A stretch of DNA of 64,000 nt from an uncultured Trueperaceae bacterium (GTDB lineage Bacteria > Deinococcota > Deinococci > Deinococcales > Trueperaceae), in assembly GCA_963799485.1 (NCBI GenBank), contig CAWCXJ010000008.1, forward strand, positions 160,001-224,000. The letters run 5' to 3'. The position numbers and the translations under genes are program-made. The notes below the pieces were generated by a model, which did no database searches, had not been told where the DNA came from, and worked only from the letters and a program-made list of their open reading frames with translations. Each line of letters starts with the position of its first letter. Position 1 is the stretch's first letter. This document shows, one piece after another, positions 39,862 through 46,021 of this stretch.

Positions 39862-41697
39862 ATGTTACATAACCTTTCACTCTTACACGACCCGCTGCGC
39901 GGGCGGCATGAAGGCAAGGCTGTCACCGTCGCCCTGCAAACGAGTCAACCCGTAACGGCGGCCTGGGTGCGAAGTGAACCCGACAACGAGGAGTTTTTGA
40001 GCCCACTGCTTCCTAAAGGTCGAAAGGGACGCTGGTTCATCTACCAGGGCGAGTTGCGCCTCAACCCGGCGGACACGGTGACGCGTTACGCCTTCAAGGT
40101 GTTGCCGGAAGCTTCAGCACATCAGCCGGGGCAAGTGTGGCTGAGCGAACTCGGTCAAACACCGTATTTTCCCGAACGTGCCGGACACTTTCGTTTCAAT
40201 CCGGGTTACAAGCCGGTGCCGTGGCTCTGGTCGCAAGTTTTCTACCAGATTTTTCCCGAGCGTTTTTATGACGGGGGCCCCGGCAACAACGTCGTGAGCG
40301 GCGAATACCTTTACGAAGGCAAGCCGGTCGTGGCGAAGGCGTGGGACGCGTTGCCGGAGCGTAAACAGGGGCCGAGGGAGTTTTACGGCGGCGACTTGGA
40401 GGGTATTCGGCAAAAGCTGCCGTACTTGCAAGACCTGGGTGTTACGGCGCTCTACTTAAACCCCGTCTTCACCTCGCCGAGTTCACACAAGTACGACACT
40501 GTAGACTATTTTCACGTTGACCCGCATTTTGGCGGCAACGAAGCACTGGAAACGTTGTGCGCGGCGCTGCGTGAACGCGATTTTCGCCTGATTCTAGACG
40601 CCGTGGTCAACCACACCTCGGAGCGTCACCCGTGGTTCGACCGTTACGGTGAGTACGACAAGGCTGGGGCATATGGTGGCGGCGAAACAAAAGACTTCTA
40701 CACCTTTGCTTCTGCTGACCCCGATTCGTACAGCGGCTGGATTGGTGTCAAAACTTTGCCCGTACTCGACTTTTCGCACCCCGAGGTGCGGCGGCGTGTC
40801 TACGAGGCCGACGACGCGGTGCTGCGGTACTGGTTGCGTCCGCCCTACAGCATCGACGGTTGGCGTTTCGACGTGGTGCATATGCTGGGCGACGGTACCG
40901 GGGCTAAAAACAACGCAGCGTATGTGCGCGGGTTTCGGCGGGCAATCAAGGAAGAAAACCCCGAAGCGCTGGTTTTGGGTGAACACTTTTTCGAGGCGAC
41001 CGCTTGGTTGCAGGGCGACCAGGAAGACAGCGCCATGAACTATTACGGGTTTACGCTGCCGGTGCGGGCGTTTCTGGCAGGTACCGATCACCGGGGGCAT
41101 TCTCTACAGATTGACGCGCGCGATTTTGAGTATCTGCTGACGAGGGCAAGGGCTCAACTCCCCTTTGAAATCCAGCTCTCGCAGTTCAACTTGCTCGGTT
41201 CACACGACGTCGCGCGGCTGCTCACACTTTTAGATGGCGATACTGCGCGGCTTAAATTAGCTGTGACGTTGCTGCTGACCTACATCGGCGTGCCGTGCGT
41301 CTATTACGGCGATGAAGTGGGGCTTTTGGGCGGCGATGACCCCGACTGTCGCCGGACGTTTCCGTGGGACGCGGCGCGCTGGAACCAGGACATGCTAGCT
41401 CACTACCGGGCGCTGATTGCCTTTCGGAAAAAGCGGCGCGTGTTGCAAGAAGGGCTTTTTATCCCGCTTTACGCTGAAGGGGATGTGGTCGCATTCGCGA
41501 GGGTTTTGGAAAGTGAAATGGTGTTCGTTATTGTCAACCGTGGGGAAGCGGTGGGGCTCGAGCTTGACCTCTCGCAAGTCGGCCTAAAAGATGAGCGGCT
41601 TCAGTCGTTCTTTGAAAACGAGCTTGCTCGAGTTGAAGATGGCGTTTTACAACTGACATTGGAAGCGTGCAGCAGCCGAGTCCTCTTTACAAGTTAG
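39862..41697 (+). CDS. malZ: Maltodextrin glucosidase (GH13)
   Basis: FYQIFPERF, SHKYDT, DAVVNH, DGWRFDV, GEHF, GSHD; start refined to ATG 39862, 7 nt after TAAGCT. Confidence 0.9.
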   Translation: MLHNLSLLHDPLRGRHEGKAVTVALQTSQPVTAAWVRSEPDNEEFLSPLLPKGRKGRWFIYQGELRLNPADTVTRYAFKVLPEASAHQPGQVWLSELGQTPYFPERAGHFRFNPGYKPVPWLWSQVFYQIFPERFYDGGPGNNVVSGEYLYEGKPVVAKAWDALPERKQGPREFYGGDLEGIRQKLPYLQDLGVTALYLNPVFTSPSSHKYDTVDYFHVDPHFGGNEALETLCAALRERDFRLILDAVVNHTSERHPWFDRYGEYDKAGAYGGGETKDFYTFASADPDSYSGWIGVKTLPVLDFSHPEVRRRVYEADDAVLRYWLRPPYSIDGWRFDVVHMLGDGTGAKNNAAYVRGFRRAIKEENPEALVLGEHFFEATAWLQGDQEDSAMNYYGFTLPVRAFLAGTDHRGHSLQIDARDFEYLLTRARAQLPFEIQLSQFNLLGSHDVARLLTLLDGDTARLKLAVTLLLTYIGVPCVYYGDEVGLLGGDDPDCRRTFPWDAARWNQDMLAHYRALIAFRKKRRVLQEGLFIPLYAEGDVVAFARVLESEMVFVIVNRGEAVGLELDLSQVGLKDERLQSFFENELARVEDGVLQLTLEACSSRVLFTS

Positions 41698-42799
41698 CAC
41701 TGTAGCGTCCGCTCGGCAAGGTTTGAATCGTACCTTGAAGTTCTAAAGTCATCAGGGTTGGCAACAGTTCGGGCGCACTTTTTCCGGTAGCGACAATCAG
41801 CTCATCTAACAGCGGTTCACCCCGGCTCCGAATCAGCGCCGTAAGTTCACCTAAAAATCCGGGCAGTTCAGGTTTGGGTTTTGCGGGGGTGCGTGCGTGC
41901 TGCCAACCGAACTCGCTGCGAATGTCGTCGGCACTCTGCGTTAAAACCGCGCCCTGTTTGAGCAAATCCAAGGCACCTTCAGCTCTGGGGTCGCCGAGCC
42001 TGCCGGGAACGGCGAAGACGCTGCGGCCCTCCTCGAGCGCGTACTCTGCCGTAATCAAAGCGCCCGATTTTCTGCCGCCTTCGACGACTAAAACACCTTT
42101 GGAAAGCCCGCTGATAATCCGGTTGCGTCCGGGGAAATATTCGGCTCTCGGCGACGTGCCGAGGCGGTATTCGCTCACAATCGCGCCGCGACCTTCTAAA
42201 ATGCGCTCAGCCAGGCGGCGGTTGCCACCGGGATAGATGATATCGACGCTCGAGCCCAACACCGCCACCGTCTGCCCGCCTGGTGTAGCCAACGCACCTT
42301 CGTGCGCGGCGGTATCGACCCCGAGTGCCAGACCTGAAACGATGGCGACGTTTGTTTCCGCCAGCTCTTGCGAAAAACGGCGGCTCAGCTCGAGCCCGTA
42401 GTGACTCGCGTTCCGCGTCCCGACGACGCCCAAGCTCCGCAGTTCGGTCAGCTCGCCGTGTACCGTTTCGGGTAGTGTCCCGCGCACATAGAGTACCGGC
42501 GGCGGGTCGTAAATCCGCGCCAGGGCTGCCGGGTATTCGGAGGTGCCGAGCGCTAAAAGCGTGACGTTGAGACGTTGGACCCGGGCCATTTCCGCGTCGG
42601 CCTTGGTTTGGGCGACGCCTCGAGCCGCTACAATAGCCTCGGCAAGCTTGCGTCCGATGCCTTCGACCTGCGTAAGTTCTGCCGCGCCCAAATCTGTGTC
42701 TGCGCCAACCCCGAAATGTTCGACCAAAGCCTTGATTTTGCGCGGCCCCAAACCGGGGGTGAACGAAAAGGTCAGCAGGGCGTGAAGCGCGGGGTTCAT
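41687..42799 (-). CDS. dprA: DNA-processing protein DprA
   Basis: VVGTR, VSGLALGVDTAAH, FPGRNRIISGLS, SGALITA. Confidence 0.96.
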   Translation of the reverse strand: MNPALHALLTFSFTPGLGPRKIKALVEHFGVGADTDLGAAELTQVEGIGRKLAEAIVAARGVAQTKADAEMARVQRLNVTLLALGTSEYPAALARIYDPPPVLYVRGTLPETVHGELTELRSLGVVGTRNASHYGLELSRRFSQELAETNVAIVSGLALGVDTAAHEGALATPGGQTVAVLGSSVDIIYPGGNRRLAERILEGRGAIVSEYRLGTSPRAEYFPGRNRIISGLSKGVLVVEGGRKSGALITAEYALEEGRSVFAVPGRLGDPRAEGALDLLKQGAVLTQSADDIRSEFGWQHARTPAKPKPELPGFLGELTALIRSRGEPLLDELIVATGKSAPELLPTLMTLELQGTIQTLPSGRYSANL

Positions 42800-42843
42800 G
42801 TAGGGCAATCGTAACAGGCGCGGGCGGCGCTGCCGATGAAGTT

Positions 42844-43513: not shown

Positions 43514-44947
43514 TCAAACCCGCTCTTTGGGCGCGCCGCGTTTCCACCGCACCCCGCCCGGCGCGTCCTCCAACACCAGCCCCAGCTCTGCCAAACGGTC
43601 ACGAATCGCGTCGGAGGTGGCAAAGTCGCGGCGCGTCCGGGCTTCCTGCCGCTGTTCACTGACGAGCTGGACAAGTCCGTCCAAGAGGGCCGTATCATCC
43701 TGCACGTTTTCCTGAACCCCGAGAATGCCGAGTACGTCCCCGGCGAGGTCGTCGAAAAAGGCTTTGGCTGCTGCTATGTACGCGGCGTCCGCGCGGCCTA
43801 GTTTGGCGTTGACATGGCGGCTTACGTCGAATAGTACGGCAATGGCCTGCGGCGTATTGAAATCGTCGTTCATCGCCGCCGTAAAACGCTCGCGGTAGGC
43901 CGTAAAAGGGTCGTTTTGCGGCGTCGCCTCACCCTCCACGCGGCGCGAAAGTTCTGCGTAAGTTTCTTGCAACCGTTTAAGCCCTTGTTTGGAGGCGTAC
44001 ACGCTTTCGTCCGAAAAGTCGCTGACGCTGCGGTAGTGCGCGCCCAAAAGGTGAAAGCGGAGCGCCGTCCCACCGTGTTCGGCAAGGAGTTCGGCAAGGG
44101 CCAAGGCACCTTTGGACTTCGCCATCTTCTCACCGCCGAAAGTCAAAAAGTTCCAGTGGAGCCAGTACCGCGCGAACGGTTTGCCTGCACCTTTCGCCTG
44201 GGCAATCTCGCACTCGTGGTGCGGGAAAATCAGGTCGAGGCCGCCGCCGTGAATGTCGAAGGTGTCGCCCAGATATTTGGTACTCATCACCGAGCACTCG
44301 AGGTGCCAGCCCGGATAGCCTTCACCCCAAGGCGAAGGCCAGTGCATCAGGTGGCCCTTTTCGGCGGCTTTCCACAAGGCGAAGTCGCGCGGGTCGTCTT
44401 TGTCGCTCCTAACCTCTACGCGCGTACCCTCTTGCTGGTCGTCGGCGTTGCGGCCCGAAAGCTCGCCGTAGTCGTCCCACGCCGATACGTCGAAATAGAC
44501 GTTGCCGCCGCGTTCATAGGCCAGGCCGCGTTCCAGTAGCGTTTGCGTCATCTCAATCTGTTCGGTGATGTGCCCGGAAGCGCGCGGGATGATGTCGGGG
44601 CGGCGCACACCGAGTTGCGCCATCGCATCGAAATACCGCCAAAAGTACTTTTCGGCAATTTCCATGGGCTCGAGCTGCTCCAAGCGCGCCCGTTTGACGA
44701 GTTTATCCTCACCCTCGTCGGCGTCGTCGGTTAAGTGCCCGACGTCGGTAACATTGGAAACGAAACGCACCCGGTAGCCTTCATGCGTAAACCAGCGGCG
44801 CACCACGTCGAAAAATACCGGGCCGCGGGCATTACCGATGTGCGGTTCACTGTAGACAGTCGGGCCGCAGACGTAAATCCCGACGTGGTTCGGGACGAGC
44901 GGCGTAAAGGTTTCTTTTTGACGGGTCAGGGTGTTGTAGAGCTGCAT
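43514..44947 (-). CDS. cysS: Cysteine--tRNA ligase
   Basis: [43 protein letters not shown]. Confidence 0.97.
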
Positions 44948-44993
44948 GGGGTCTCCTTGGGGCAGATGTGGGGGCTAGGGTCGGCTTAAAACG

Positions 44994-45032
44994 CTAGCAA
45001 CATCGTGGGGTAGTAAAGGAGAACTTACTCAT
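44994..45032 (-). CDS. Putative leaderless cysS leader peptide MSKFSFTTPRCC
   Basis: ATG 6 nt after extended -10 TGcTAAACT; ends TGT TGC TAG; contains anti-SD TCTCCTT. Confidence 0.7.
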   Translation of the reverse strand: MSKFSFTTPRCC

Positions 45033-45141
45033 GCTTAAAGTTTAGCATGGCGTCTGTTCTGACCGAGAAGCCAAGTAGACACAGCGATATTCGCGTACCT
45101 ATTTATCCTCTTGATTTGAAAAGGCTGTAACGATAAGCTGT

Positions 45142-45581
45142 TCAACCTCCCCTGACGAACGTTGTGTTGTATCGGTGGACGCTCAACTTGCTCTGAACAG
45201 ATGGATGGTCGATGATGCCCTTATAGACGCCGTAATTTCTGTAGACACGCTCTTTGTCTAACGAGTTGTCCCGCCGACGTTTGCGTTTGACAAGCTCGGG
45301 GAGCATTGCGTGAAGTTCGGTGATGACAAAGCCTTGCCCGTAAAAAGCCGTGATTTCTTCTCTGGTAAGATAAGAAGTGACAAAGAGGATGGAATCGGCG
45401 TCTGTTTCGAGAAAATTTTTCACGATGCGTTCAAATAAAGCTTGATAACCTCTTCGCTTTCGGGCCAGATGCCGCCGTTTAATCTCTGTGTTTCGTCATC
45501 TATCTCGAACACCTCGAGCCCTGAACGCGGCGCAACCGTCGATTTGCCCACACCGGAGAGTCCCAAGAGTAGAGGCTTCAT
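45142..45581 (-). pseudogene. Frameshifted P-loop (shikimate/nucleotide kinase-like) gene
   Basis: MKPLLLGLSGVGKST...EIDDE stops at 45420; the remainder continues in another frame (ORF 45142-45423). Confidence 0.6.
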
Positions 45582-45616
45582 AAGTCATCTTTTCACAAAT
45601 TATGAGGCCCGGTGCG

Positions 45617-45934
45617 TTACCAAAATATTAAGCTGGGGATATACCTTGCTTGAGGGCTGACCAAACTCGTGAGCGCGAAGAGGTGATTAAGGGCTCGAGC
45701 GTCCGAGGCCAGCGGACGGCTGCGCCCGCACCCGCGTTGGTCGAAGACGGCGTGGTACGTCTCCGGGTCGAAATTACGGCGTGCGCCGGGGGTAGAGCCG
45801 CTACCGGGGCCGCCGTGCAGGTAGACCGCCGGGATACCCGCAGGCGTGCCCACCTCTTCGTAGTACAGCGTATGAGCGTTCCCGACCTCGAGCATTCCGG
45901 AGTAAGGTTCTATTGCCGGATGGCTATGGGTCAC
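45617..45934 (-). pseudogene. pip: N-terminal fragment of proline iminopeptidase
   Basis: LYYEEVG, LHGGPGSG, FDQRGCGRSRP, then similarity is lost before the catalytic GxSxG. Confidence 0.8.
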
Positions 45935-45974
45935 TGCAGCACCAGATATATTGCAGCACCAGATATTCCTGGCA

Positions 45975-46004
45975 AACAAAAAAAGAGCCCCCGAGGACTC
46001 TTTT
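45975..46004 (-). terminator. rpmB terminator
   Basis: AAAAGAG...CTCTTTT stem with an extended U-tract on the - strand. Confidence 0.7.
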
Positions 46005-46021
46005 ACGACTTGCAAGCCGGT

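Follow-up and report, generated by a model that had tools for sequence, protein, structure and literature searches.

A predicted leaderless leader peptide with a CGA-UGU codon pair as the likely sensor of Cys-tRNA upstream of cysS in Trueperaceae

Introduction

What sets the level of cysteinyl-tRNA synthetase (CysRS) in bacteria of the family Trueperaceae? The question is raised by the region upstream of cysS in a stretch of 64,000 nucleotides (nt), hereafter the window, from an uncultured Trueperaceae bacterium (GenBank assembly GCA_963799485.1, contig CAWCXJ010000008.1, positions 160,001 to 224,000 of the forward strand; all coordinates below are those of the window unless a contig is named). 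A 12-codon open reading frame (ORF), MSKFSFTTPRCC, that ends in two Cys codons lies between a promoter element and cysS. A preliminary description of the window had read this ORF as a leaderless leader peptide through which CysRS would be controlled by its own product, with a ribosome stalled for lack of Cys-tRNA opening a hairpin that otherwise hides the Shine-Dalgarno (SD) sequence of cysS. Leader-peptide attenuation is textbook knowledge, and it is thought to need runs of cognate codons as well as a switch between a terminator and an antiterminator. Is the short ORF a sensor, which of its codons do the sensing, and how would the signal reach cysS? The comparative analysis reported here indicates that the element is very probably a real Cys-sensing leader peptide for cysS.

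Results

The gene downstream of the short ORF is cysS, as had been proposed. Its 477-amino acid product, encoded at 44947-43514 on the minus strand, matched the cysteine--tRNA ligase model TIGR00435 (E 3.2e-138, 461.7 bits against a cut-off of 340). The gene is present as a single copy in the host genome (3.66 Mb, 59% GC) and is 94% and 88% identical to cysS of metagenome-assembled genomes of Truepera sp. All elements of the leader are on the same, minus strand. An extended −10 promoter element, TGCTAAACT, occupies positions 45047-45039 and is followed 6 nt later by the ATG of the short ORF (45032-44994, including the stop codon). The 12 codons and the stop codon (ATG AGT AAG TTC TCC TTT ACT ACC CCA CGA TGT TGC TAG) leave 46 nt between TAG at 44996-44994 and the ATG of cysS at 44947, and the leader in total is only 85 nt long. 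Promoter element, start codon, ORF and gap were each found where the preliminary description had placed them. The SD sequence of cysS, AAGGAGA, can be read from the sequence at 44958-44952. A sigma-70 scan that also demanded a −35 element found no promoter at the cysS leader, and the sole terminator-like site in that scan was on the opposite strand, spanning the promoter and the ATG.

The transcription start site (TSS) is predicted to be the A of the short-ORF ATG, at 45032, because of the spacing of the promoter and because of the ortholog in Deinococcus deserti. In that organism the 5′ end of the cysS mRNA encodes a leader peptide of ten residues with two Cys, Deide_16409 (MTALCCPSTR), and reads enriched by terminator exonuclease (TEX) place the TSS at +1, on the AUG, as reported in the passages and tables covered here (de Groot et al., 2014; PMC4007540). 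We infer that the cysS transcript of the window likewise starts at, or at most one base from, the AUG of the 12-codon leader peptide.

We then compared regions upstream of cysS from 40 genomes of relatives, drawn from five families of the order, among them that of the host (f1), and from 80 named public records, mostly of Trueperaceae. After removal of duplicates, 106 distinct regions of 260 nt each were available. A region was assigned to the positive class when TAnnnT was followed after 4-9 nt by an ATG or GTG that opens a short ORF with an in-frame CGA-TGT. Such an ORF was found in 72 of the 106 regions, a count drawn from relatives that are not independent of one another. Nine regions had Cys-Cys or Cys-Cys-Cys without CGA, bringing the positional equivalents of MSKFSFTTPRCC to 81, and in three the short ORF contained other Cys codons. 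The −10 element was of the TG-extended type (TGnTAnnnT, 4-9 nt ahead of the ATG) in 70 of the 72 CGA-TGT leaders. Of the 71 CGATGT occurrences that lie no more than 180 nt downstream of an extended −10 element and ATG, 70 were in frame 0, and the distances from the start codon to CGA took 21 different values, every one a multiple of three. So many frame-preserving changes in length indicate that the short ORF is translated. The encoded peptides vary from 5 to 51 residues and have nothing in common except Arg-Cys. A functional micropeptide was rejected, as the peptide sequence is not conserved outside these two residues.

Broken down by family, the leader ORF was found at 17 of 23 loci in f1, at three of four in f3 and at one of four in f4. 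A CGA-TGT leader is also present at locus L102, which comes from a metagenome-assembled genome of the cultivable species T. radiovictrix. All four cysS leaders of f2, a Deinococcus-like family (loci L033-L036), encode Leu-Cys-Cys, with peptides such as MTTLCCPL, MTTLCCLR and MPALCCLPMR, and all four leaders of f5 encode Cys-Cys-Cys. Two f4 genomes (L031 and L032; genomes G027 and G031) have a different arrangement: cysS itself lies 7 nt behind a TATAAT with no short ORF upstream, and in these genomes it is apparently leaderless and not attenuated. At locus L011 (genome G012), a 12-nt unit is repeated four times at about −110 to −35 of cysS and encodes Met-Ala-Cys-Glu four times. The repeat frame crosses the start of cysS, and the CGA-TGT leader is absent from this locus; the array may form another type of Cys sensor, built from repeats, or be junk.

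The preliminary description had stressed the tandem Cys codons, and these proved not to be the conserved core. A single Cys is encoded by 55 of the 72 CGA-TGT leaders, and the invariant element is CGA-TGT. Tandem Cys is also not rare by itself, since Cys-Cys occurred in 3 of 78 promoter-adjacent short ORFs of this genome. One tandem-Cys short ORF, MCCARSHRKPDFVP, lies ahead of the gene for a DUF892-BON-SRPBCC protein (L136, G000:C8:64873-66760), and another, MCNTACCPAEIRK..., overlaps the start of a gene of the 2-phosphosulfolactate phosphatase family (L126, G000:C6:108330-109214); the Cys codons of both are not preceded by CGA.

In the window the sensor dicodon CGA-UGU (Arg-Cys) is located at 45005-45000, with UGC at 44999-44997 between it and the stop codon. 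Of 84 upstream ORFs (uORFs), 71 have CGA as the codon directly ahead of the sensor Cys; among the Arg codons at other positions of these uORFs, 18 of 206 (8.7%) are CGA. A comparable bias was seen at the sensor Cys codon, which is TGT in 83 of the 84 uORFs, compared with 31 TGC and 22 TGT among the other Cys codons. Genome-wide values for the host are 4.7% of Arg codons for CGA and 35% of Cys codons for TGT, and CGATGT makes up 3 of the 228 Arg-Cys dicodons in long ORFs. The only tRNA-Arg anticodons in this genome are CCG, CCT, ACG and TCT, and CGA can therefore be read only by ACG. Deamination of this anticodon to ICG is presumed; the genome has a TadA-like gene, whose score of 146.4 bits is below the cut-off of 150. 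The one tRNA-Cys has the anticodon GCA. With CGA read by ACG (as ICG) and UGU by GCA, both sensor codons would be decoded by wobble pairing.

The comparison establishes the promoter-ATG geometry, translation in frame and a position-specific CGA and UGU. Order-wide conservation of the geometry, the frame and the Cys codon supports control of cysS by a leaderless leader peptide with Cys codons, as the preliminary description had suggested. It is this conservation, and not the fold, that raises the feature far above chance.

A scan of the promoter-adjacent short ORFs of this genome, with the downstream genes assigned to families, showed that cysS is not the only gene preceded by CGA and a cognate codon. 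The metG leader MNGRMMQLRPGPG contains CGA-ATG (L135, G000:C8:287730-289841), the thrS leader ...ARTSLHAR contains CGA-ACG (L124, C5:127774-130001), and the trpE leader MRFKLSFQLEPQRWRL contains CGA-TGG (L132, C7:451679-453313). CGA-GTT is found in the valS leader ...QQRRVR (L242, C5:137130-140040) and CGA-CTC in the leuC leader ...YARLVLL... (L240, C1:3237-4893). In relatives, CGA-ATG precedes metG at 14 of 29 loci and at three of four Deinococcus-like loci, and CGA-ACG or CGA-ACT precedes thrS at 13 of 30 loci and at four of four Deinococcus-like loci. CGA-TGG precedes trpE at 15 of 29 loci, with Trp-Trp-Trp instead in five loci of other families, and the thrS leader encodes Thr-Thr-Thr in two loci of another family. 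In the sister families, codon runs stand in for a missing CGA: Cys-Cys or Cys-Cys-Cys for cysS, Trp-Trp-Trp for trpE and Thr-Thr-Thr for thrS. Since CGA stands in frame ahead of six different cognate codons, there is no single RNA motif that would account for the pattern, and an effect on decoding explains it.

Several other CGA-containing short ORFs, including those before leuS (CGA-GGC), a part of metH, secDF and a YbdK-type ligase gene, were set aside as chance or unclear; for leuS, a short ORF encoding KLLLP and followed by a terminator was the better fit. The thrS leaders of three of the four Deinococcus-like loci (L232-L234) are 32-33 codons long and contain both CGA-ATG and CGA-ACT, and they may be double Met/Thr sensors. 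The trpE leaders of Trueperaceae (L168-L190) keep the motif ...G-R-W (CGA-TGG) together with a long helix in which the 5′ part of the short ORF pairs with the SD region; the sequence of this helix differs among genera.

We next turned to the fold of the leader. The sequence TCTCCTT in codons 4-6 of the short ORF (45022-45016) is complementary to the SD sequence of cysS, and a nested hairpin formed by GATGT/ACATC and GCTAG/CTAGC (45004-44965) has the sensor, the second Cys codon and the stop codon in its 5′ arm. In the minimum free energy (MFE) structure of 45032-44940 (−17.9 kcal/mol, z −2.07, equalled by 8 of 200 dinucleotide shuffles), TCTCCTT pairs with AAGGAGA on the outside, and GATGT:ACATC and GCTAG:CTAGC are nested inside, exactly as the preliminary description had drawn it. 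The predicted probability that the cysS SD is unpaired is 0.01, compared with a median of 0.43 for 182 control genes of the same genome with an AGGAG SD, two of which had a value as low. Forcing a ribosome footprint onto CGA-UGU changed this probability to 0.36. In all four similar leaders of the genus, a pyrimidine stretch in the 5′ part of the uORF pairs with the SD in the MFE structure and the hairpin begins at or just after the sensor codons, which are 22-28 nt from the 5′ end; the sequence of the 3′ arm is different in L003 and L004. The trpE leader of this genome contains a helix of roughly 20 base pairs between the 5′ part of its uORF and the SD, and such a helix is enriched in Trueperaceae trpE leaders, with 6 of 15 ranking at or above position 10 of 200 in a test against shuffled sequences.

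A mechanism can be proposed from these features. A ribosome would load on the leaderless 5′ end and read to CGA-UGU-UGC-UAG, with CGA decoded by tRNA-Arg(ACG, presumed to be ICG) through an I:A wobble pair and UGU by tRNA-Cys(GCA) through a G:U wobble pair. With CGA in the P site, filling of the A site would be slow, and the dwell time would probably depend steeply on the level of charged tRNA-Cys. When Cys-tRNA is scarce, the ribosome would pause on the 5′ arm of the leader hairpin, beside the anti-SD segment; the SD of cysS would be kept free and more CysRS would be made. When Cys-tRNA is plentiful, the ribosome would terminate, the leader would refold, the SD would be paired and cysS would be poorly translated. 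The TSS, the pause and the transmission of the pause to cysS are predicted steps of this scheme. We consider the whole proposal, a leader-peptide sensor with SD unmasking, to be evenly poised between right and wrong. That the output is mainly SD unmasking in the Truepera-like genus of this genome has at best an even chance and perhaps slightly less; in its favor, mycobacterial polycysteine leaderless ORFs are described as working likewise, and there is no terminator here.

A number of results weigh against the mechanism. Within 260 nt of cysS, 22 of the 106 regions had no such ORF, although four of these contain CGATGT near −230 and their start codon possibly lies beyond the 260-nt cut. The CGA rule is not universal, as the leaders of leuS (KLLLP), trpB (CGC-TGG-TGG) and aspS (DDDN) in this genome deviate from it. 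The metG, leuC and leuS leaders of this genome end in clear terminators consisting of a hairpin and a T-run, which indicates that transcriptional control is the commoner output in this organism. The duplex of uORF and SD was no better than duplexes with shuffled uORFs, ranking 58th of 200 in the window (58, 86, 26 and 9 of 200 for the four leaders of the genus), and family-wide 4 of 84 uORFs ranked at or above position 10 of 200, about the expected number. From CGA to cysS, the leaders showed no excess of stability over dinucleotide shuffles (median z −0.03; z was below −2 for 2 of 66). Of 83 family leaders, only 7 gained more than 0.3 in SD accessibility under the constraint of a stalled ribosome, and this constraint did not free the SD of the trpE leader of this genome, for which the value stayed at 0.09. 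RNAalifold, applied to the four leaders of the genus, returned only five pairs and no covariation; those five pairs join the Cys/stop region with the first codons of cysS, and the alignment misplaces the anti-SD segments.

The SD-sequestering hairpin of the preliminary description must therefore be qualified. Sequestration is predicted in the window and in three similar leaders of the genus, yet it is indistinguishable from composition effects because the duplex is no better than with shuffled uORFs, and neither covariation nor frequent release of the SD by a stalled ribosome was seen. According to these models, SD sequestration is not general in the family. The outcome was similarly divided for alignment of the upstream regions, which the preliminary description had put forward as a check: it recovered the conserved Cys codon, as CGA-TGT or in Cys-Cys and Cys-Cys-Cys, but no covarying stems among the four genus leaders. 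A second ribosome, loaded on the leaderless 5′ end while the first is paused ahead of it, would mask the anti-SD segment, and in such a model it could reconcile the weak thermodynamic signal with control at the SD.

The same sensor could also be joined to a different output. Among the alternatives, Rho-dependent termination survived best. The ribosome paused at CGA-UGU, or the translation of cysS that it allows, would keep Rho off, and the loading site would be formed by the unstructured C-rich leader together with untranslated early cysS RNA, in analogy to the tna operon. The spacer between the uORF stop codon and the SD (44993-44959) is rich in C and poor in G. Over the 32 nt that were measured, which begin at the stop codon and end 14 nt short of the cysS ATG, it contains 44% C and 16% G; a C-G difference as large as the resulting +0.28 was seen in only 3% of 435 control upstream regions. 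C exceeds G in the spacer of 63 of 66 family leaders (median 41% C and 27% G). The lack of excess structure in the leaders is as expected of a Rho loading site, almost none of the Trueperaceae cysS leaders has a T-run terminator, and a rho gene is present in the genome (571.8 bits against a cut-off of 509). However, loading of Rho is usually quoted to take roughly 70-80 nt, and the gap in the window is just 46 nt, of which a paused ribosome would cover few bases. In addition, the C-richness may equally reflect diffuse anti-SD pairing. Because of the composition of the spacer and the presence of rho, we keep Rho-dependent output as an unlikely but serious contender.

We regard classical transcription attenuation as improbable. 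In such a scheme the 45004-44965 hairpin would be an intrinsic terminator without a U-tract that is blocked by the paused ribosome. Relatives lend it some support, as strong terminators of a hairpin and a T-run follow the Cys-Cys or Cys-Cys-Cys codons in the cysS leaders of L033-L036 and of L037-L040 (f5); the metG, leuC and leuS leaders of this genome also carry terminators, and in one Trueperaceae subgroup of seven leaders the SD is preceded, at a distance of a few nt, by a GC-rich hairpin, with a changed sequence in one member. In the window, however, the cysS leader has no hairpin with a T-run on the cysS strand, and without a T-run the 45004-44965 hairpin is not a classical terminator. 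It is weak and AU-containing, and it is followed by C-rich sequence rather than U. A ribosome at the stop codon would, moreover, cover the same 5′ arm as a paused one, and the two states would probably be alike for RNA polymerase.

Two other mechanisms were rejected. Coupling of termination and reinitiation fails on logic, as a pause would then lower rather than raise cysS expression. A T-box riboswitch had no covariance-model match in the window or at the loci of six relatives: an Rfam search of 44700-45500 up to E 10 gave two chance-level matches only and no T-box, and a search of the six loci up to E 1 gave no match, T-box included. Finally, it is very improbable that the short ORF is no regulator, be it an ORF that adjoins the cysS promoter by chance or a carrier of CGAUGU as an RNA element (for protein or tRNA binding, or T-box-like), since the conservation of CGATGT at the nucleotide level (which alone is compatible with an RNA motif), its place in a small palindrome such as GCG-ATGT-CGC in many single-Cys leaders and the chance frequency of tandem Cys in promoter-adjacent short ORFs are opposed by the constancy of its frame over 21 distances from a promoter-adjacent ATG, by in-frame CGA ahead of Met, Trp, Thr, Val and Leu codons of the matching genes, and by the lack of an Rfam family match.

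Downstream of cysS and on the same strand, the window contains dprA (PF02481, E 1.2e-70; 41687-42808, minus strand), and a 160-amino acid ORF without a family match lies between the two genes. Upstream of the cysS promoter, the region 45142-46021 (minus strand) resembles gene debris: the match of a 134-codon frame to the prolyl aminopeptidase model (E 1.9e-24) is confined to positions 6-71 of 307, and short frames without a family match come after this fragment.

Discussion

Judged by its position and its codons, the cysS leader of the window is almost certainly a Cys-tRNA-sensing leader peptide and the positional ortholog of the one in D. deserti. This kind of element is already known, from D. 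deserti and from the uORFC-8-2 motif of Rhodobacterales. What seems to be new is that the sensor is CGA-UGU and not tandem Cys, and that five or more further leaders of this genome share the arrangement of CGA plus a cognate codon. Also apparently new is that the leader in this genus, unlike those of the Deinococcus-like relatives, has no terminator. The core of the element is a single wobble-read Cys codon behind a rare, wobble-read Arg codon, CGA.

Tentatively, and with somewhat less than even confidence, we propose that CGA before the cognate codon is a selected kinetic sensitizer, and that one common CGA-X module serves Cys, Met, Thr, Trp, Val and Leu genes of Deinococcales, joined to whichever output the leader offers (terminator, SD masking, perhaps Rho). 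A single cognate codon would then suffice as an amino acid gauge. In the portions of the two studies covered here, CGA is one of the codons read most slowly in a his-leader assay in Salmonella (Chevance et al., 2014; PMC4046918), and inhibitory codon pairs in yeast lead to empty A sites and are partially rescued by extra tRNA (Tesina et al., 2019; 10.1101/755652). The slow I:A wobble of CGA-led inhibitory pairs is the property that a sensor would exploit; the difference is that general translation effects or engineered reporters were described there. It counts against the sensitizer that the argument is one of analogy, drawn from yeast and Salmonella and not from Deinococcota. In the literature searched, we found no natural regulatory use of CGA directly ahead of the cognate codon of a leader peptide. 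If the proposal is correct, the leaders described here would be a case in which bacteria naturally employ an inhibitory codon pair for regulation. They would also provide a simple rule for spotting single-codon attenuators and a compact design for synthetic amino acid sensors.

How does the cysS leader compare with known systems? The classical attenuators of enterobacteria (trpL, hisL, pheL, leuL and thrL) consist of SD-led ORFs with runs of 2-7 cognate codons and pairs of terminator and antiterminator. As in these systems, a ribosome at cognate codons of the leader would set the expression of the cognate gene; in contrast to them, the ORF in the window is leaderless, has one conserved sensor codon behind CGA and is not followed by a terminator. 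The T-box leaders of cysS and cysES in Firmicutes control CysRS by the charging of tRNA-Cys, and the uncharged tRNA is read by a structured RNA of roughly 200 nt.

Polycysteine leaderless short ORFs of the Ms5788A class in mycobacteria are translational attenuators (Canestrari et al., 2020; 10.1101/834739). From the parts of that paper covered here, they share with the window a leaderless short ORF with Cys codons and the mechanism that we propose. They belong to a different phylum, and their targets are genes of cysteine metabolism; the terms "cysS", "tRNA synthetase" and "arginine" were absent from the text of the paper to which a term search was applied. At least two consecutive Cys codons define the class, and the window has these (UGU-UGC), whereas most Trueperaceae leaders have one Cys codon behind CGA. 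Upstream of cysS in Rhodobacterales, the uORFC-8-2 motif has been read as ribosome-mediated attenuation (Brewer et al., 2021; PMC8632094). According to the sections covered, two tandem Cys codons lie in a short ORF, within the first stem and before cysS, as in the window. The motif differs in that it belongs to Alphaproteobacteria, UGC is dominant, the Cys codons are usually at positions 14-15 and a U-run terminator is always present. The Cys codons of the window are likewise in the 5′ arm of a stem, yet no U-run follows.

The nearest comparison is within the phylum. The preliminary description had held that nothing of this kind was described in Deinococcota, which is incorrect, since the leader peptide of cysS in D. 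deserti has been mapped and named (de Groot et al., 2014; PMC4007540). In the passages and tables of that paper covered here, Deide_16409 is one of 14 leaderless leader peptides of aminoacyl-tRNA synthetase and amino acid genes for which transcription attenuation was predicted, and neither codon identity nor CGA is mentioned. Deide_16409 and the leader in the window agree in phylum, gene and position, in a Cys-containing short ORF right behind a TAnnnT −10 element, and in promoter-ATG geometry, for which the TSS is mapped in D. deserti. The f2 leaders beginning with MTTLCC or MPALCC look like direct relatives of Deide_16409. The D. deserti peptide has Leu-Cys-Cys and its relatives have hairpin and T-run terminators, in contrast to the window, with CGA-UGU-UGC-stop, no terminator, an 85-nt leader and an SD that is predicted to be paired. 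Of the features that mark the class of de Groot et al., the window thus has a cognate short ORF upstream and a frame that is kept, but not the intrinsic terminator. Our comparison extends a leader peptide found once, in D. deserti, to the order: it is present in Truepera and in most of the 106 sampled cysS regions, as one sensor to which different outputs have been joined in sister lineages.

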